Source: Patescibacteria group bacterium
Lineage (GTDB): Bacteria > Patescibacteriota > Patescibacteriia > UBA2591 > JAQUPP01
Reading direction: 5' to 3'
NCBI GenBank assembly: GCA_028716665.1
Contig: JAQUPP010000002.1
Coordinates: 139,717-203,716 of the forward strand
Length of the DNA: 64,000 bases
The first letter of the stretch is position 1. Each line of letters opens with the position of its first letter. This document shows positions 11,224 to 17,070 of this stretch, piece after piece. The position numbers were made by a program, and so were the translations under genes. The notes below the pieces were generated by a model. The model ran no database searches, was not told where the DNA came from, and saw only the letters and a list, made by a program, of their open reading frames with translations.

Positions 11224-12396
11224 ATGGCTCAATCCAAAAATCAGTCGTCAAAGTTGGCGGTAAAAATAAAAGTTATTGGCATCGGCGGGGCGGGTGGAGC
11301 GACTATCGGCAGGCTGATTAAAGCTAAAATAAACAATATTGAATACGTCGCCATCAATACTGATTTTAAATCTCTGGATTCAATCAAGGGAAAAGTTCAA
11401 AAAATAAAAATAGGAAAAAAAATCACCAAAGGATTGGGAACGGGAATGAATTTGGAACTGGGCAGAATGGCTATTGAAGAAAGCATCAATGACGTGAAAA
11501 AATCTTTAAACAACGCTGACTTGATTTTTATCGTTTCCGGATTGGGCGGGGGAACGGGCAGCGTGGTAACGCCCATTGTGGCGGAATTGGCGAAAAAAAA
11601 TGGAGCTCTTGTTATCGGCGTAATGACTACGCCTTTTATTTTTGAAGGAGCTCAACGCAAGCATATTGCCGATGAAGCTCTTAAAAAAATAATTCATCGA
11701 GTTGACGCGATGGTTACCATTCCGAACAGCCGGCTTTTGCAGACCATTGATAAATCAACTCCTTTATTGGAAGCGTTTAATATTTCCAGCGAAATTTTAA
11801 AACAGGCGATAGAAGGAATTTATAATATTCTTAATTTGCCCGGTTTGATTAACATAGATTTTGTTGAAGTCAAAACGGTTATTGAAAACGCCGGAGAAAC
11901 AATACTCGGCATGGGCACGGCCGAAGGAGAGGACAGAGCCAGGCAAGCCGCAAAATTGGCCTTGGAAAATCCTTTAATAGATATTTCCATCAAGGGAGCG
12001 AAAAAAGTTCTTTGCACCATCAGCGGCGGACCGGATTTAACCATGAATGAAGTTTATGAAATCACTCAAGAAATCACCAATCAAATCGGAAAAGAGGCGC
12101 AAATTATTTTCGGCGCCGTAACAGATGATAATTTAAAAAATAAAGTTAAGGTGACGATTGTCGCCACGGGTTTCAGCCAATTGCATTCTTATACGCCAAT
12201 TTTTGAGCCGTTCCACAAAAAAGAATTTACCGAAACTCCACTGCCTCAAAAATCTTCAATTAAAGAAGAAAAAAAAGAAATATTGAAAATAGAACCGATT
12301 TCAAAACAGGAATATAAATCAAAGTTTCAAAACAACAGCGAATTGTCGGAAGATGAATTGGAAATTCCCGCGTATTTGAGAAAGAAAAAGATGTAA
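11224..12396 (+). CDS. ftsZ: Cell division GTPase FtsZ
   Basis: Tubulin signature GGGTGSVVTPIVAELAKK; C-terminal conserved tail EIPAYLRKKKM. Confidence 0.95.
   Translation: MAQSKNQSSKLAVKIKVIGIGGAGGATIGRLIKAKINNIEYVAINTDFKSLDSIKGKVQKIKIGKKITKGLGTGMNLELGRMAIEESINDVKKSLNNADLIFIVSGLGGGTGSVVTPIVAELAKKNGALVIGVMTTPFIFEGAQRKHIADEALKKIIHRVDAMVTIPNSRLLQTIDKSTPLLEAFNISSEILKQAIEGIYNILNLPGLINIDFVEVKTVIENAGETILGMGTAEGEDRARQAAKLALENPLIDISIKGAKKVLCTISGGPDLTMNEVYEITQEITNQIGKEAQIIFGAVTDDNLKNKVKVTIVATGFSQLHSYTPIFEPFHKKEFTETPLPQKSSIKEEKKEILKIEPISKQEYKSKFQNNSELSEDELEIPAYLRKKKM
12331..12396 (+). repeat. Direct repeat copy 1 (authentic ftsZ 3' end, 66 nt)
   Basis: Sequence aacaacagcgaattgtcggaagatgaattggaaattcccgcgtatttgagaaagaaaaagatgtaa recurs at 13391, 14847, 16866. 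Confidence 0.9.
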
Positions 12397-12418
12397 TTTA
12401 AGGTGAAATTATAGTCAA

Positions 12419-12490
12419 AACCGTGAAAATCCGTGTTTTTTACCAGTTTTTCACGGTTATCTTGACAAAACCGTGAAAAAAGTGTATAAT
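12419..12490 (+). promoter_or_regulatory. Sigma-70-like promoter (TTGACA-17-TATAAT at 12462-12490) overlapped by three AACCGTGAAAA operator-like repeats (two inverted, one direct)
   Basis: Hexamers and spacing read directly; aaccgtgaaaa at 12419 and 12469, ttttcacggtt at 12448. Confidence 0.6.
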
Positions 12491-12498
12491 AGTAGTAT

Positions 12499-13386
12499 AT
12501 GACAAAAATACTTAATGTTTTCAATAATATAAATTCTCTTCGTGAGAGATACTATAAAGCGTCTATAGGCAAGCAGGCGCTTATTAAACTTATCGCCGAA
12601 ACCGAAGTCGCCGAACAGGTTTATAACTCAAACGCCATTGAAAACAGCACGCTTACTTTCGAAGAAACCGAAAAAATACTTCTTCAAATTGATTTGGACA
12701 GATTTATTACCGAACGAGAAATTTTTGAAGCAAAGAATTTGGCAAAAGTTGTATCCTATATAGACAAAAAAGCCAAAGAACAAGAACTTACACTTGAAGT
12801 AATTTTATCACTTCATAAAATGTTAATTTCAAATATCCGCGATGATGTCGCCGGAAGATTTAGAAAAGACAATGAATTTGTGCGTGTTGGAAACCATATA
12901 GCCCCGAATCCAAAAGAAGTAGTGGATCGCCTTGAAAAAATGTTGGCGGAATATAATGCCGCAAGCCATGAGAATATTATTAAGCGCATAGCGAAATTGC
13001 ATCTTGCTTTTGAATATACCCATCCGTTTATTGACGGCAATGGCCGCATTGGACGCGTTATTAACAATTATTTACTGATACGAGAAGGATTCGTCCCGAT
13101 AAATATAAAATTTATTGACAGGAAAAAATATTATGAAGCATTTAAAGAATTTGACGAAAAAGGCGCGACGGCTGTTATGGAAGAAATAGTGGGTAGGGCG
13201 CTTACTAATAGTTATCACAAACGATTGGCATATTTGGAAGGTAAAAAAATTATCACTCTGGCTGACTATGCTAAAAATAATAAACTTTCGCATTCAAATC
13301 TTATAAATAAAGCGGTTCGTCAAACAATTGAAGCTTTCTTGGAAAAGAATGTCTGGAAGATCGGCGTTAATAATACTAAAAAATAA
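12499..13386 (+). CDS. Class II Fic-family protein (AMPylator-like) with N-terminal inhibitory motif
   Basis: HPFIDGNGRIGR canonical Fic motif; SNAIEN matches (S/T)xxxE(G/N) inhibitory helix. Confidence 0.85.
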   Translation: MTKILNVFNNINSLRERYYKASIGKQALIKLIAETEVAEQVYNSNAIENSTLTFEETEKILLQIDLDRFITEREIFEAKNLAKVVSYIDKKAKEQELTLEVILSLHKMLISNIRDDVAGRFRKDNEFVRVGNHIAPNPKEVVDRLEKMLAEYNAASHENIIKRIAKLHLAFEYTHPFIDGNGRIGRVINNYLLIREGFVPINIKFIDRKKYYEAFKEFDEKGATAVMEEIVGRALTNSYHKRLAYLEGKKIITLADYAKNNKLSHSNLINKAVRQTIEAFLEKNVWKIGVNNTKK

Positions 13387-13390
13387 TATA

Positions 13391-13456
13391 AACAACAGCG
13401 AATTGTCGGAAGATGAATTGGAAATTCCCGCGTATTTGAGAAAGAGAAAGATGTAA
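13391..13456 (+). repeat. Direct repeat copy 2 of ftsZ 3' end (66 nt, 1 mismatch)
   Basis: Sequence identity to 12331-12396. Confidence 0.9.
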
Positions 13457-13667
13457 AATGAAAAAGCCCCCGATAGAGACGGAACTCTATAAGGGTCTTC
13501 TTCGTGGTGATATAATCATCTTATCAAATATAAAATTTTTGTCAAAACATTTATTGTGAATAAATTTCAAAATTTTTAGAAATAGTGAGTAGTATGTTGG
13601 AGTAAAATTTGATATAATTAAAAATTAACAGTTAATACTTGAACAGTAATAACTAACCAAAAAAATA

Positions 13668-13925
13668 ATGTACTCAATTATAGAAACAATCAAACAGGCT
13701 GCCAGTAAAAGAAAGATTTTAAAGATTATTTATCGTGAGAAAGATGGTACAAGCGAGGGGTGGCGATATATAGAACCCTATAGTTTCAGTCATGATGATG
13801 GCGAAGACGGTCTTTTTGCTTGGGATATTAGTAAAGGTGGCATCAGGAGATTTTCATTTGATAGAATTAATGATATTCAACTCACTGATGAAACATATAA
13901 TCCGCGTTATGGGATAGAAATTTAA
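13668..13925 (+). CDS. Stand-alone WYL-domain-like small protein
   Basis: KILKIIYREKDG..RYIEPYSF...GLFAWD...GIRRFSFDRI matches WYL domain consensus (iiY..g..R.veP..l.....wyL.aw....g.R.FrldRI). Confidence 0.55.
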   Translation: MYSIIETIKQAASKRKILKIIYREKDGTSEGWRYIEPYSFSHDDGEDGLFAWDISKGGIRRFSFDRINDIQLTDETYNPRYGIEI

Positions 13926-13926
13926 T

Positions 13927-14727
13927 ATGGAAAATAAAAAATTTAAATTAAAAATAAAAAAAAGAACTTTACTTATTATTGATTGGGCAAACGTTTGGGG
14001 TTGGTCAAAAACTTTAAAATGGGAAGTATGCCCTCAAAAATTATTTAAATTTTTTGATAGACCAAAAATTATTGATAAAAGATTTTATTATGGAGTAGAA
14101 AAGGGTCAGCCAAAATCAGAAAATTTTGAATTAGAAATTAAAAACATCGGATTTACTCCTATTTTTAAAGAAGTTAAATGGATACCAGTTTTGCTGGAAG
14201 AACAGTCTCATTTTAAGAAAATTGTTAAAGATTTATTTAATGTATTAGATAATGTGAAAAATACAAATTCTAATATTTCAAATAAACTTTATGAGTTGAT
14301 TAAAAAAATCAATGATTTGTCTGAAACAAGCGTTGGTAACAACAAGGAATCTTTTAACTTGTCTAGTGAGAAAAGTTTAAAGGAAATATTTGACTTAATT
14401 GAAGAATTGGATATTGATTTGAAAAATTTGAATATTGAAATAGGCGGGCTTCAAGAAAATTTAAAATTGCCGGTTCGAAGGCGGAAATGTGATTTTGATG
14501 TAGAAATAACTAGAGATGCTTTGAATGCTCAAGATAATTATGATACATTATTGTTATTTAGTGGGGATGGTGATTATTCTGCCTTAACAGCGGATTTAAT
14601 TGCAAAAGGTAAAAAGGTAATTTTAGTTTTTGCTTCTGATCATTTAGGGAAGGAATATCGAGAGATAAAGAGTAATCTTTTTTATGCTTGTTTAATTGAT
14701 AATTTAAGAGATATTTTACAAAAATAA
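13927..14727 (+). CDS. NYN/LabA-like (PIN-fold) predicted ribonuclease with central coiled-coil insert
   Basis: N-terminal LLIIDWANV and C-terminal LLLFSGDGDYSALTADLIAKGKKVILVFA match NYN/LabA core. Confidence 0.55.
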   Translation: MENKKFKLKIKKRTLLIIDWANVWGWSKTLKWEVCPQKLFKFFDRPKIIDKRFYYGVEKGQPKSENFELEIKNIGFTPIFKEVKWIPVLLEEQSHFKKIVKDLFNVLDNVKNTNSNISNKLYELIKKINDLSETSVGNNKESFNLSSEKSLKEIFDLIEELDIDLKNLNIEIGGLQENLKLPVRRRKCDFDVEITRDALNAQDNYDTLLLFSGDGDYSALTADLIAKGKKVILVFASDHLGKEYREIKSNLFYACLIDNLRDILQK

Positions 14728-14728
14728 A

Positions 14729-14757
14729 TCCGAGGAAGTAATTCCTCGGATTTATGT
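14729..14757 (+). terminator. Hairpin terminator after NYN gene (ccgagga-agtaatt-cctcgg + T)
   Basis: Inverted repeat read directly. Confidence 0.5.
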
Positions 14758-14846
14758 GTATCTCAATGAATAAATTCATTGAGCGCGATTAATTAAAATA
14801 TAGCATATAATGTTAAAATTACAATAGGCCATTGTGGATAACCTCA

Positions 14847-14910
14847 AACAGCGAATTGTCGGAAGATGAATTGGAAATTCCCGCGTATTTGAGAAAGAAA
14901 AAGGGGTAAT
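14847..14910 (+). repeat. Direct repeat copy 3 of ftsZ 3' end (~64 nt; gatg->gggg change)
   Basis: Sequence identity to 12333-12396. Confidence 0.85.
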
Positions 14911-14983
14911 TTATCTTGCACTATTCCTTAAATAAACCGCGATAGAACAATAGAAGGGGAATAAATTAATTATAATATAAAAT

Positions 14984-15241
14984 ATGAGCCTAACAAATAG
15001 AATAAGTGATGGGTGGCTTCGCTTATTAATAACAATTTGCTATACAATTATTTCTTTATTTTTTCTATATAAAGGAGTTGATTTAATAAAAATAGGAGCA
15101 AGAGGAGAATGGAGGGTTGTTGCTGATTTTAAAGATATACCACTTTATATAACAAGTATTTCCCCTGGTGTATTAGTAATTTTAGCTGGCATGCTGATAA
15201 TGTGTTGGGGCCTGCCAACAACTATAAAGAATTTAAAATAA
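14984..15241 (+). CDS. Small two-TM membrane protein, unknown function
   Basis: Two hydrophobic helices; no recognisable motif. Confidence 0.4.
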   Translation: MSLTNRISDGWLRLLITICYTIISLFFLYKGVDLIKIGARGEWRVVADFKDIPLYITSISPGVLVILAGMLIMCWGLPTTIKNLK

Positions 15242-15394
15242 ATATGGCCCGAATAAGATACAAAAATCCAATTGAATATAAAGGGTTATAGGCGGGGAAA
15301 ATTTTATGACAAGAAGATACCTATTAATGAGTCCACGAAGAGAAATTTTAATATATGATGAAAAAAATTAAAAACTAATTTAATCGTCAGTCAT

Positions 15395-15883
15395 ATGCAT
15401 GCAAAAATTTTAAATCAAGATGCCGATACTTATTACAATGAAGGAATAGGCTTAGAAAAATTGGGACACTACGAAGAAGCAATAGAAATGTATGACCAAG
15501 CAATTAAAATTAATCCTCGATTTGACGCCGCCTATTACAGTAAAGGAAGGACCTTAAATGAATTAGGGAATTACAGAGAAGCGATAAAAATGTTTGATCA
15601 GGCAATTAAAATTGCCCCTCAATTTGCCTGGATTTATAATAAAGGATATCAAGAAGTGATAGAAAGATCCTGTCAGGCAATCAAATTTAGAGGAAGTGAC
15701 TTAAATGAATTAGGGAATTACAGAGAAGCGATAAAAATGTTTGATCAGGCAATTAAAATTGATCCTCAGAATGCCGATGTTTATATTAGAAAAGGATATG
15801 CCTTAGATAAATTAGGTAATCATAGAGAAGCGATAAAAATGTATAAAAAGGCACTTAAAATTGATCCTCATTTTGGAGAATAA
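15395..15883 (+). CDS. TPR-repeat protein (contains two nucleotide-identical internal repeats)
   Basis: Repeated YxEAIKMxDQAIKIxP TPR-like units; DLNELGNYREAIKMFDQAIKI duplicated. Confidence 0.65.
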   Translation: MHAKILNQDADTYYNEGIGLEKLGHYEEAIEMYDQAIKINPRFDAAYYSKGRTLNELGNYREAIKMFDQAIKIAPQFAWIYNKGYQEVIERSCQAIKFRGSDLNELGNYREAIKMFDQAIKIDPQNADVYIRKGYALDKLGNHREAIKMYKKALKIDPHFGE

Positions 15884-15947
15884 ATAATTGAATAAAAATA
15901 ATGAATAGTGACTACGATGATTTAATTAAATTAAAGTAAATGAATCT

Positions 15948-16844
15948 ATGGAAGAAAAATTAAAAAAACGATTTACTTTTAAACTTTGGAGTCGCGAAAG
16001 AGATTTAAAAACTTTAAAATATATTGCTATATTTATAGTTGTTTTCGCTTCAATCATAATAATCTTGGATGCGATTGACTATCAGTTTGGCTCCAATGAA
16101 GATAACTCAGCTAATGAACCTACTGAGCAAAAAGTGGAAGAAAATAATTGCAATGTGTCGGGCATTCAATTGCATGGGGAATTTGTGACTTATATTCCAT
16201 CAAATAATTTTGATAAAGACGGAAATGTTTTGGAAGATCAAACCTCTTCTGACAATATTGTTTATTACATCAATGAAGCAGAAAAAAATGAAAGTATTAA
16301 AGCTATCATTTTAGAAATTGATTCTTACGGCGGTTCAGGAGTAGCCGCGGAAGAAATCAGTAATGCTTTAAAAAATGCTAAAAAGCCAACAGTTGCTTTA
16401 ATTAGAGATATTGGAGCCTCGGCTGCTTATTTTGCGGCAACCGGTACAGACAGAATTTTTGCTTCTAAAAATTCTAACGTTGGCAGCATAGGAGTTACCA
16501 TGTCTTATCTAGACTATACTCAACAAAATCAAAAAGAGGGAGTGACTTATATTCCGCTTAGTTCAGGAAAATTCAAAGATACCGGCGACCCGGATAGGGC
16601 ACTCTCACAAGAAGAAAAAGACCTTTTAATGCGTGACGTCAATATCCAATATCAAAATTTCATAAAATCAGTAGCGGAAAATAGAAATTTAGATATTAAA
16701 AAAGTGGCAGAATTAGCTGATGGTTCAACTATGCTTGGAGAAATGGCACTTCAAAACGGATTAATTGATCAAATCGGCGGGATAGAGGAGGTTAAAGAAT
16801 ATCTAAAAGAAAAAATCGGAGAAGACGTGGATATTTGTTGGTAA
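15948..16844 (+). CDS. SppA-like signal peptide peptidase (S49 family), N-terminal TM anchor
   Basis: IDSYGGSGVAAEEI, GASAAYFAA (Ser nucleophile context), SIGV motifs of S49/ClpP-fold peptidases. Confidence 0.7.
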   Translation: MEEKLKKRFTFKLWSRERDLKTLKYIAIFIVVFASIIIILDAIDYQFGSNEDNSANEPTEQKVEENNCNVSGIQLHGEFVTYIPSNNFDKDGNVLEDQTSSDNIVYYINEAEKNESIKAIILEIDSYGGSGVAAEEISNALKNAKKPTVALIRDIGASAAYFAATGTDRIFASKNSNVGSIGVTMSYLDYTQQNQKEGVTYIPLSSGKFKDTGDPDRALSQEEKDLLMRDVNIQYQNFIKSVAENRNLDIKKVAELADGSTMLGEMALQNGLIDQIGGIEEVKEYLKEKIGEDVDICW

Positions 16845-16865
16845 ATAATTTTATTTAAGAAAAAA

Positions 16866-16899
16866 TAATTCCCGCGTATTTGAGAAAGAAAAAGATGTA
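16866..16899 (+). repeat. Direct repeat copy 4 (partial, 34 nt) of ftsZ 3' end
   Basis: aattcccgcgtatttgagaaagaaaaagatgtag. Confidence 0.8.
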
Positions 16900-17070
16900 G
16901 TTTATTCCCTACCGGATTGACAATTTTTTATCGCTCAAATTCTAGCAGTTTGAATTAAAATTTTGCATAAGTTTTCAAAATATATTATTTTTTAAATGAT
17001 GATGAATATAAATGGATTATTGCACAATTTAATGAATAAGTGAGTTAAGAAATATAAGGTTCAAAATAGT

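Follow-up and report, generated by a model that had tools for sequence, protein, structure and literature searches.

A WYL-domain gene coupled to a LabA-like NYN gene and a predicted convergent antisense RNA: a candidate RNase toxin-antitoxin or defense cassette of Patescibacteria

In the 64-kb stretch of patescibacterial DNA analyzed here (the window), a gene for a stand-alone WYL-domain protein is followed by a gene for a LabA-like NYN protein, on whose 3' end a conserved small-RNA gene is predicted to converge. The module looks like a new kind of RNase toxin-antitoxin (TA) or defense cassette. Our overall reading, to which the sequence comparisons lend about an even chance, is that of a mobile three-part module of Patescibacteria, in which an RNase effector would be combined with an antisense RNA antidote and a clade-specific WYL modulator. 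A preliminary description of the locus had proposed an undescribed, minimal two-gene unit. Both of its open reading frames (ORFs) are present, but the small-RNA gene means that two genes are not the whole unit. The claim of novelty stands: Rfam, PADLOC, NCBIfam, and the searchable literature yielded no description of the system, and no paper turned up that deals with WYL and NYN as a gene pair or with NYN in a matching toxin-antitoxin or anti-phage role. Coordinates are listed in Table 1.

Table 1. Features of the module and its surroundings in the window
Feature	Coordinates	Strand	Details and basis
ftsZ 3' end copy c2	13390-13456	+	Last ~20 codons plus stop, KRKM-stop; left cassette boundary
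AT-rich leader	13457-13667	+	Genome specific; homology to other WYL-NYN loci from about 13659
Extended -10 promoter-like TGATATAAT in leader	13610-13618	+	Sequence reading
WYL-domain gene	13668-13925	+	85 aa; PF13280 match, AF2 model, Foldseek matches
LabA-like NYN (PIN-like) nuclease gene	13927-14727	+	266 aa; PF01936 match, 2QIP likeness, AF2 core
Predicted convergent small RNA, ~70 nt	14720-14789	-	Covariation, G·U bias, covariance model
Small-RNA layout		-	5'-AUCGCG, 14789-14784; hairpin 2, 14783-14762; GAUAC spacer; hairpin 1, 14753-14726; U-run, 14724-14720
Predicted small-RNA promoter	14797-14824	-	-35 TTGTAA, 14824-14819; 16-nt spacer ending TGc; -10 TATATT, 14802-14797
DnaA-box-like 9-mer TTATCCACA	14833-14841	-	Final conserved element in the module; copy c3 follows after 1-5 nt
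ftsZ 3' end copy c3	14843-14913	+	KKKG-stop; right cassette boundary

The WYL assignment was borne out by profile and structure. The 85-aa ORF matches Pfam WYL (PF13280) with an E value of 8e-12 and 45.4 bits (cutoff, 21.8) over 69 of the 70 profile positions, and its AF2 model (pLDDT, 93.8) consists of one helix and five strands, as in an Sm-like five-stranded beta-barrel. The model superimposes on the WYL domains of BrxR, CapW, PafBC, and DriD (Foldseek TM, 0.78-0.84; rmsd, 1.3-2.3 Å); these are its best structural matches, and they are defense associated and bind single-stranded DNA (ssDNA) (PMC11662680). Such wHTH-WYL-WCX regulators are, however, dimeric transcription factors of ~300 aa, whereas the 85-aa protein has neither HTH nor WCX. 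According to Pfam and AF2 it is a bare domain without HTH, RHH, or AbrB, encoded in the position of a small upstream coupled gene. Members of the family share 60-86% identity and the invariant residues Y22, K25, D26, G27, W32, R33, E36-S39, A51-D53, and G58-F62. The signature of the ssDNA-sensing subgroup (arginines of the RWHVR motif; CapW S144, R164, R168, and R184) is not found in the protein. In a profile alignment to 9C5G/7QFZ, the positions of CapW R164 and R168 are occupied by E/D46 and F50, and only one of the three ssDNA-contacting arginines is kept (R66, the equivalent of R184). Since the equivalents of R164 and R168 are not conserved, the ligand cannot be taken to be ssDNA. Its PADLOC-DB v2 matches were limited to generic models of WYL and to an AbiEii model, through the WYL tail of the latter.

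The 266-aa ORF was likewise verified as a NYN/LabA protein. It matches Pfam NYN (PF01936; E = 8.6e-14, 52.7 bits; cutoff, 24.2), and the nearest solved structure both by sequence (hmmsearch, 1.1e-9) and by fold (Foldseek E, 1.2e-7; TM(target), 0.76) is the LabA-like NYN protein 2QIP. Residues 12-83 and 188-237 align to residues 9-80 and 90-139 of 2QIP, that is, to nearly adjacent segments, so the fold is indeed split in two by an insert as proposed, which comprises ~100 aa (about residues 84-187) and not ~120 aa. The insert lies directly N-terminal of the catalytic KCDFDVE strand and is predicted to be helical with low confidence (AF2 pLDDT, 42-77), against a pLDDT of >90 for the core. D19, N22, D189, D191, E193, and S212-G213-D214-G215-D216 are invariant in 28 homologs of 46-83% identity, and these acidic motifs align to VDVQNV, GDWDV, and SGDGDF of 2QIP. 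The protein is probably an RNase and probably harmful if unrestrained, although no member of COG1432 (LabA-like NYN) has been studied or shown to be a nuclease (PMC5499597). NCBIfam holds no name and PHROG no family for it, its PADLOC-DB v2 match is a weak one to a CRISPR-associated NYN model (2.7e-5), and no single PADLOC-DB v2 system was strongly matched by both proteins.

The two genes form a tight operon, with a gap that measures 1 nt in the window where 2 nt had been reported. In the neighborhood census, 26 of 28 related long-form loci, drawn from different species, have WYL immediately ahead of NYN, which is far above chance, and the distance from WYL stop to NYN start is -4 to +12 nt in 21 of 23 loci. 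A search of 185,579 species genomes gave only about 30 long-form loci, scattered over many candidate phyla. Across Patescibacteria the pair is patchy and its genomic position varies, in agreement with the variable, mobile context suggested earlier; no ftsZ synteny was found at WYL-NYN loci elsewhere. The pair is much better conserved than flanking restriction-modification (RM) genes (NYN 70% versus Mod 33%; in another comparison of loci, NYN 66% versus Mod 28% and Res 22%), and within it WYL is more conserved than NYN. Two loci lack WYL, one with a truncated NYN gene (L017) and one with an intact long-form NYN gene and no WYL gene within 1.4 kb upstream (L006), too few to decide the question of an orphan toxin; because the intact NYN gene of L006 stands without WYL, the latter may not be an obligatory antidote. 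A 353-aa ORF that resembled a natural WYL-NYN fusion (L036) proved to be a frame artifact, with WYL and NYN in different frames, and none of the 150 best WYL representatives contained a NYN domain.

The homology among loci continues for ~115 nt beyond the NYN stop codon. The preliminary description had placed a terminator here, and the hairpin itself is real (14724-14755; dG, -22.3; z, -7.5); its U-run, however, sits on the minus strand, so the hairpin would terminate a convergent small RNA whose hairpin 1 spans the NYN stop codon. RNAalifold predicted 19 base pairs in the alignment, 14 of them with compensatory changes, and 94% of cells were paired, a value reached by 0 of 500 shuffles and compared with 30-57% in slid controls. 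G·U pairs number 29 when the element is read from the minus strand versus 2 from the plus strand, a bias that points to the minus strand. The corresponding covariance model scored 96.9 bits in the window; at 18 other loci it scored 65-100 bits, and each hit lies at the 3' end of NYN on the minus strand. With a strict filter the element was detected at 62 of 81 NYN loci, and other scans added 9, giving about 70-71 of the 79 loci with DNA; the predicted RNA ranges from ~38 to 75 nt across the family. Rfam 15 holds no family for it (best matches, 13-20 bits versus gathering scores of 35-128; E ≥ 0.85) and six further loci likewise gave no match at the 3' end of NYN. A generic antisense unit associated with Fic genes was considered and rejected, as the Fic genes of other loci are not followed by a similar unit.

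A predicted sigma-70-type promoter with an extended -10 precedes the element, and on these sequence features we infer that the RNA is transcribed. In the window, 7 nt separate the -10 from the 5' AUCGCG. The family layout (TTGACx, 16-17 nt, TGnTAnnnT, ~7 nt, ATCACGC) was matched at ≥11 of 13 positions on the minus strand of 43 of 71 NYN 3' regions, compared with 3 of 71 on the plus strand, a mean of 0.9 in shuffles, and 6 of 185 control windows. The 5' tag of the family, AUCACG, is termed invariant; the copy in the window reads AUCGCG. The exact 9-mer at the outer end of the module recurs in 17 of 71 NYN 3' regions (shuffle mean, 0.15; control windows, 2 of 185). The RNA element also accompanies WYL-less NYN genes, among which no conserved small protein partner was found, the small ORFs upstream being mutually unrelated and, except at L059, non-WYL. 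Since the RNA unit thus follows the whole NYN family, the ancestral partner of the RNase would be the RNA and not WYL.

In the reading we favor, the LabA-like NYN nuclease would be the effector and the small RNA, made from a strong convergent promoter just downstream and perfectly complementary, as an antisense RNA, to the nuclease mRNA at its 3' end, would be its antidote. The RNA might pair with the mRNA, as in type I TA systems with a 3' overlap, or the protein might bind the AUCACG tag and hairpin, as in type III systems. In the insert-bearing clade, WYL would be translationally coupled to the nuclease and modulate its activity, binding the protein and/or single-stranded nucleic acid; the fusion of closely related WYL domains to TIR and to AbiEii toxin domains would fit a WYL domain that acts directly on effectors. 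The module would enter varied sites and settle preferentially in or beside RM operons and other defense genes, and there it would serve for addiction or as a back-up (abortive) device. What we infer here are the toxicity of the nuclease, the part played by each partner, and any defense phenotype.

The small-RNA unit also bears on an alternative that we consider unlikely, namely, that WYL and NYN form a two-protein sensor-effector or type II TA pair, in which WYL would sense a ligand or neutralize NYN and the downstream element would be a mere terminator. The tight order of a small gene and then an enzyme would suit such a pair, as would the ssDNA sensing by the WYL domains of CapW, DriD, and PafBC (PMC11662680), the close relatives of the module's WYL domain that occur fused to TIR and AbiEii toxin domains, and the insert that the WYL-linked clade carries beside the active site, a possible dock for WYL. 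A plain terminator, however, does not explain a minus-strand promoter at fixed spacing to AUCACG, the 29:2 G·U bias, or the minus-strand U-run, and the RNA element is found at NYN genes that have neither WYL nor another conserved small protein partner. In addition, WYL has no DNA-binding domain with which to regulate its own expression, and its conservation exceeds that of the presumed toxin, which is unusual for an antitoxin.

The module in the window is part of a 1.45-kb cassette with a 67-nt copy of the ftsZ 3' end on either side. Copy c2 is 99% identical to the true ftsZ end (12330-12396), a match obtained in 0 of 100 shuffles, and copy c3 ends like the single ftsZ end of a related strain (L092). 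The cassette is missing from a 94%-identical strain, in which a Nmad3 gene occupies the site. A circular or excised form suggested by a 1,461-nt Logan contig (L082) turned out to be a repeat-bounded unitig (13416-14876). A phage origin was also rejected: IMG/VR contained no close relative, only distant matches to the NYN C terminus, and the ftsZ-end repeat, in exact or degenerate form, was missing from viral contigs.

These borders raise the improbable alternative that the module is a selfish mobile cassette: its nuclease would serve homing or insertion, and recombination or end sites at the DNA level, loosely like integron attC, would be formed by the hairpin, the GCGTGAT motif, and the TTATCCACA 9-mer. 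Homology among the loci has sharp limits, at the ribosome-binding site of WYL on one side and at the 9-mer on the other; insertion between operon genes is precise; the hairpin varies in sequence while keeping its structure; and in the window the module ends next to an ftsZ-end repeat. The conserved -35, the TG-extended -10, and the 7-nt spacing to the motif, on the other hand, fit transcription and not recombination. The ftsZ repeats are limited to this lineage, no flanking direct repeats of ≥18 nt were found at other loci, and no recombinase accompanies the module. Moreover, NYN/PIN-like domains are not known to act as homing or transposition nucleases. With regard to integron gene cassettes, those in the window are bounded by direct repeats and not by attC-type imperfect palindromes, and the surrounding ±10 kb showed no recombinase.

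The proposed defense setting was supported, in that Fic and a PARIS-like AriAB fusion are found nearby, as are RM systems in other genomes. RM genes lie within 6 kb of 15 of 31 long-form loci compared with 2 of 48 short-form (WYL-less) NYN loci from the same phyla, which served as controls (p = 4e-6), a contrast that may be inflated because the profiles were seeded from long-form loci. Often the pair is inserted precisely between mod and res, with 5-13 nt separating it from the methyltransferase gene in the loci examined. This arrangement recurs in no fewer than two unrelated type III lineages, and the pair also occurs behind hsdM in type I systems; the order Mod-WYL-NYN-Res or HsdM-WYL-NYN...HsdS was seen in L001, L026, L028, L085, L089, and L091. 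Further neighbors across the loci are Fic, an OLD-like ATPase, Zeta, SocA, transposases, and recombinases. In roughly half of the loci no RM gene is nearby, and local profiles found none in the 64-kb window.

Just as improbable as the selfish cassette is an ordinary enzyme of RNA processing or turnover that has an antisense regulator of its own and is found close to RM genes only because accessory genes pile up in islands. Bacterial NYN/LabA proteins are tied by gene neighborhood to tRNA/rRNA processing (PMC5499597), and several loci adjoin housekeeping genes (LeuRS, MreC, a sigma factor, and glycosyltransferases). Such an enzyme, however, would not be expected to be rare, patchy, variable in position, and absent from a 94%-identical strain, nor would its identity across phyla exceed that of its neighbors, and the RM enrichment is strong relative to WYL-less NYN genes of the same phyla. 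Still less probable is a post-transcriptional controller of the host RM operon, C-protein-like at the RNA level, that would tune res versus mod by cleaving the polycistronic mRNA: the repeated placement between mod and res or behind hsdM and an antisense promoter facing the mod-wyl-nyn transcript at mod/res loci would fit it, but half of the loci, including the window, have no RM genes nearby, and the NYN-RNA unit occurs without such neighbors at 46 of 48 short-form loci.

The favored RNase-antisense RNA reading has parallels in several known systems. In the Bacillus subtilis type I pairs txpA/RatA, bsrG/SR4, and yonT/SR6, as in the module, a strong promoter drives a convergent small RNA complementary to the 3' end of the toxin mRNA, and the bidirectional terminator common to both RNAs and the location on mobile DNA of txpA/RatA-type systems add to the likeness (PMC3531473, PMC5848175). 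The predicted unit has the antisense RNA of this type, with a minus-strand promoter, covarying hairpins, and a U-run overlapping the NYN stop codon or 3' coding end. Type I toxins, however, are membrane peptides of 30-60 aa, whereas the module encodes a NYN nuclease of 170-330 aa (here a soluble 266-aa enzyme) and not a small hydrophobic toxin, which would make it an atypical member at best. Further differences are an RNA of down to ~38 nt, the addition of WYL in one clade, and the conserved AUCACG tag, which would be needless if the RNA were purely cis-antisense, so that simple cis-pairing leaves part of the mechanism unexplained.

In the type III systems ToxIN and AbiQ/antiQ, an endoribonuclease toxin is neutralized by a specific small structured RNA, and the systems act by abortive infection. 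Type III antitoxin RNAs such as ToxI are, however, toxin-processed tandem repeats on the sense strand upstream of the toxin gene, and ToxN does not have a PIN/NYN fold; no tandem repeats were found upstream of NYN, and the RNA of the module is single, downstream, and antisense, which sets it apart from type III. Escherichia coli SymE/SymR shares with the module a toxin linked to RNA cleavage, repression by a cis-antisense RNA, lateral mobility, and RM and transposon neighbors (PMC1891008), but SymE has an AbrB fold unrelated in sequence or structure to NYN or WYL, and SymR overlaps the 5' end. PrrC/RloC likewise place an RNase gene inside an RM operon as a fallback for blocked restriction (PMC1484252, PMC3458546); PrrC, however, joins an ABC-ATPase to a distinct nuclease domain and is kept silent by the restriction enzyme itself, with no RNA or WYL partner and no homology. 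VapBC resembles the module as a sporadic, mobile type II system with a small upstream gene coupled to a PIN-like nuclease gene, but VapB antitoxins combine DNA-binding domains with disordered toxin-binding tails, VapBC has no antisense RNA, and NYN/LabA, with its GDGD motif, belongs to another branch of the PIN-like superfamily than VapC. For the proposed role of WYL, WYL1 of type VI-D CRISPR offers a parallel, as it is non-enzymatic, binds ssRNA, and modulates a partner RNase in trans, boosting that of Cas13d (PMC5935466, PMC6547453). WYL1 differs in its size (~390 aa), its additional ribbon-helix-helix domain, and its crRNA-guided HEPN RNase partner, and its structure, 6OAW, was a weaker Foldseek match to the WYL model (ranks 33 and 35).

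A more specific version of the favored reading, and a fairly unlikely one, is that the LabA-like NYN proteins of Patescibacteria represent an unrecognized RNA-protein TA/immunity class. Here, a convergent RNA of 38-75 nt would restrain the nuclease, the protein would read AUCACG plus hairpin, the DnaA-box-like site would couple the RNA promoter to the replication state, and the bare, Sm-like WYL domain would be an RNA/ssDNA sensor in one clade, the whole serving as back-up to RM. If true, this would be the first function for the large COG1432 family. LabA-like NYN proteins have thousands of members and no demonstrated biochemical role, and the strictly associated, tagged small RNA is a candidate substrate, inhibitor, or regulator. 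WYL domains are so far known in transcription factors or as Cas13d accessories; a bare 85-aa WYL protein coupled to a nuclease would add a new arrangement, one in which WYL signaling could be studied in minimal form. Patescibacteria have tiny genomes and few recognized defense systems beyond RM, and a mobile RNase module inside RM operons bears on their phage resistance and on the stabilization of accessory DNA.

At this locus, the array of ftsZ 3' repeats points to a gene-capture hotspot in these organisms. The AT-rich leader between copy c2 and the WYL gene, which had been described as the operon's own, is specific to this genome and lies outside the conserved module. A second small-RNA-like unit was observed on the minus strand within this leader.

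Both open reading frames (ORFs) of the module are present as the preliminary description had placed them, separated by one base rather than 2 nt, and Pfam searches assigned the first to the WYL domain and the second to the NYN family (see table). Generic NCBI labels already exist on both genes. According to Pfam, AlphaFold, and structure superposition, the 85-aa protein consists of a WYL domain and nothing else. Its model (pLDDT 93.8) comprises one helix and a five-stranded barrel and superposes on the WYL domains of BrxR, CapW, PafBC, and DriD with TM scores of 0.78-0.84, in agreement with the initial assignment. Two of the three single-stranded DNA-contacting arginines of CapW, R164 and R168, are not conserved, and K25, R33, R60, R61, R66, W32, and W52 show no or almost no variation. 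The entire WYL subfamily collapses into one representative upon clustering at 50% identity. Stand-alone relatives are common (≤115 aa in 68 of the best 150 representatives), and TIR and AbiEii effector domains are directly fused to related WYL domains; no WYL-NYN fusion was found among these 150.

Coordinates of the WYL-NYN module and the surrounding ftsZ 3'-end array
Feature	Position	Strand	Remarks
ftsZ, last ~20 codons and stop	12330-12400		original; recurs at three further places
Fic cassette	12401-13389		between ftsZ end and c2
Fic promoter region	12438-12490
ftsZ-end copy c2	13390-13456		99% identical
Second small-RNA-like unit	13456-13545	-	just past c2
WYL-NYN cassette	13457-14842		between c2 and c3
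WYL ORF, 85 aa	13668-13925	+	PF13280, E 8e-12
NYN ORF, 266 aa	13927-14727	+	PF01936, E 8.6e-14
Predicted small RNA	~14789-14720	-	convergent
9-mer TTATCCACA	14833-14841
ftsZ-end copy c3	14843-14913		97% identical; ends KKKG*
Small membrane (TM) protein, TPR protein, and S49 peptidase cassette	14914-16866
TPR gene	15395-15883
ftsZ-end copy 4	16867-16904		truncated
ABC-ATPase-DUF4435/Toprim fusion, 497 aa	17071-18564

By family and fold, the larger protein is a LabA-like NYN protein and probably a nuclease, with 2QIP as its sole significant solved relative in both sequence and fold. Residues 12-83 and 188-237 align with 2QIP residues 9-80 and 90-139, so that about 100 residues predicted to be helical, modeled with low confidence (pLDDT 42-77), stand in for a short loop just ahead of the catalytic KCDFDVE strand. 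The previously noted split of the fold thus stands, with an insert of ~100 instead of ~120 residues. D19, N22, D189, D191, E193, and SGDGD (212-216) do not vary among 28 NYN homologues, and the active site appears intact.

In the protein database there are 334 NYN and 137 WYL relatives of the same kind, nearly all from Patescibacteria metagenomes and on contigs whose lengths match between the two sets. Scanning a single genome for each species yielded 110 loci, 80 of them retrieved. The insert-bearing long form is found at the 30 closest (46-82% identity), and in 26 of the 28 of these with upstream DNA a WYL gene lies directly upstream of the NYN gene, with -4 to +12 nt from WYL stop to NYN start in 21 of 23 measured loci. 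Across the same locus pairs, WYL shows the higher conservation (56-89% identity, versus 46-81% for NYN). The other ~50 loci encode a shorter NYN protein without the insert; no other conserved small protein partner was found for these, and only one, L059 (1561-2420), has a WYL neighbor. It combines a divergent WYL protein (107 aa), a short-form NYN protein (184 aa), and a small-RNA unit, and is an independent second pairing, so the insert is not strictly needed for the association. Locus L006 (1468-2223) has an intact long-form NYN gene whose 1.4 kb of upstream DNA contains no WYL gene, and at L017 (10001-10600) an N-terminally truncated NYN gene lacking catalytic D19 and a WYL partner retains an intact small-RNA unit.

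Nucleotide homology between loci extends from the WYL ribosome-binding site (~13659) to about 115 nt beyond the NYN stop codon and ends at 14841-14842, directly before c3. Read on the minus strand, its distal part contains the 9-mer TTATCCACA, a -35 box, a 16- to 17-nt spacer with TG as its last bases, a -10 box, and, after 7 nt, an invariant AUCACG (AUCGCG in the window copy). A hairpin beginning exactly six bases past the A of this motif comes next, followed by GAUAC, in many long-form loci another hairpin spanning the NYN stop codon, and a U-run. A promoter score of 11/13 or higher was reached on the minus strand of 43 of 71 loci, versus 3 on the plus strand, an average of 0.9 in shuffles, and 6 of 185 control windows; 17 of 71 NYN 3' regions contain the exact 9-mer (0.15 expected). 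Compensatory changes are seen at 14 of the 19 pairs in a 15-sequence alignment, and 94% of cells are paired, a level reached by 0 of 500 shuffles and compared with 30-57% in slid controls. There are 29 G·U pairs on the minus strand and 2 on the plus strand, and the minus-strand fold is more stable in 38 of 42 loci (41 distinct hairpin sequences; p = 1e-7). The hairpin had been described as a terminator of the gene pair. Given the minus-strand promoter, covariation, and strand bias, for which a plain terminator would not account, the best reading is that this hairpin terminates a predicted convergent small RNA, and it may do so bidirectionally.

Searches with a covariance model and a composite pattern placed the unit almost exclusively at NYN 3' ends. 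It was detected at 62 of 81 loci with a strict filter, and nine more from other scans bring this to ~71 of 79 loci with DNA there, short-form genes included. At short-form loci, the predicted RNA spans just ~38 nt, with AUCACGC followed by a G+C-rich hairpin and a U-run. No Rfam family matches it. In some lineages (homologues P0081, P0107, P0116, and P0119; loci L014, L016, L018, and L025-L028) the NYN ORF reads through the hairpin and the GCGTGAT motif, which yields a conserved C-terminal tail, IPxDFSxGRD, the translation of ATC CCC .. GAT TTC TCG GGG GGG CGT GAT; at other loci, the TGA within GCGTGAT serves as the stop codon. The apparent protein conservation of this tail is thus caused by constraint on RNA or DNA.

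Several features accompany the unit. At L074, two tandem AUCACGC-hairpin-U-run units with promoters (10543 and 10656, minus strand) lie 3' of one short-form NYN gene. The 9-mer is DnaA-box-like, with a perfect match to the consensus; it adjoins the -35 box in either orientation in many NYN 3' flanks, and a one-mismatch variant, TTATACACA, lies directly 3' of the stop codon at L026 and L028. The second unit in the window (-35 TTGACA, 16-nt spacer, TG-TAAGAT, 7 nt, 5'-AUCACCACG, a long hairpin with dG -21.2 and z -5.1, and a U-run) shares the design of the NYN-associated RNA, yet faces no NYN gene and does not match its covariance model.

The proposal of a variable, defense-linked setting was borne out by the differing neighbors of the pair, whose context is mobile. 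It lies between a type III methyltransferase and the Res subunit at L085 and L091, as annotated, and by inference also at L001, L026, and L028; between hsdM and hsdS of a Fic-rich type I system at L089; and after Mod-Res-T5orf172 and before a SocA/Panacea gene at L090. It adjoins Vsr-Dcm-MutH and transposases at L083 and serine recombinases at L087 and the P0116 locus. Of 24 species loci, 8 have a DNA methyltransferase gene immediately 5' of the pair. Fifteen of 31 long-form loci have restriction-modification genes within 6 kb, as against 2 of 48 short-form loci of the same phyla (Fisher p = 4e-6), a contrast to be read with the caveat that the local profiles were seeded from long-form loci. 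Between lineages, NYN identity is 46-70%, whereas Mod falls to ~30% and Res to ~24%, which argues against simple co-divergence with one restriction-modification system. No close relatives of the pair were found in viral contigs.

A toxin-antitoxin-like module is the most economical reading of these data, and we give about even chances to the following model. The NYN nuclease would be the effector and the antisense RNA the ancestral antidote, acting either by pairing with the mRNA 3' end followed by duplex cleavage, as described for txpA/RatA and yonT/SR6 (PMC3531473, PMC5848175), or by direct binding to the NYN protein in type III fashion. Both routes are compatible with the data; direct binding would account for the invariant AUCACG beside a covarying hairpin. 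WYL, presumably gained together with the insert beside the active site and translationally coupled to NYN, would be a modulator that binds the nuclease, a single-stranded nucleic acid, or both; candidate ligands are the RNA 5' tag or nucleic-acid fragments from infection or restriction. Residence within restriction-modification operons is reminiscent of PrrC (PMC1484252) and of the SymE/SymR family (PMC1891008), which suggests that the pair may stabilize these operons or act as a back-up when restriction fails.

The module can be filed with small toxin-antitoxin or abortive-defense modules, with partial likeness to the canonical types: it lacks the peptide toxin that defines type I, the DNA-binding antitoxin of type II, and the sense-strand repeat RNA of type III. 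Both protein domains are already known. PADLOC, NCBIfam, PHROGs, Rfam, and the searchable literature yielded no record of the conserved pairing, of its placement inside restriction-modification operons, or, most notably, of the convergent small RNA that accompanies the whole family, in line with the view of the pair as an undescribed system. The preliminary description was therefore correct in its observation and partly supported in its interpretation, which was incomplete in missing the small RNA. Through this RNA, the function of the NYN/LabA family, to our knowledge not known, becomes directly testable.

In the window, four ftsZ ends in direct orientation delimit three promoter-bearing cassettes. 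A metagenome contig of a related strain (L092), 94% identical over ybeY-dagK-ftsA-ftsZ, has a single ftsZ end (KKKG*, as in c3) followed by an unrelated Nmad3 gene, which marks the WYL-NYN genes as an insertion at a hypervariable site; the ftsZ 3' end is a gene-capture hotspot. No recombinase was found within ±10 kb, and ftsZ is a neighbor at none of the other loci. The Fic cassette has a perfect consensus promoter (TTGACA-17-TATAAT) enclosed by the arms of an operator-like 21-nt inverted repeat (AACCGTGAAAA / TTTTCACGGTT). Within the TPR gene, near-identical DNA repeats (a 37-nt unit present five times, with 100% identity between two copies, plus a 185-nt duplication) suggest recent repeat expansion or recombination. 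Just past the truncated ftsZ-end copy, the fused ABC-ATPase-DUF4435/Toprim protein matches the PADLOC AriAB (PARIS) fusion model (E 1e-110) and is PARIS-like (AriA-AriB).
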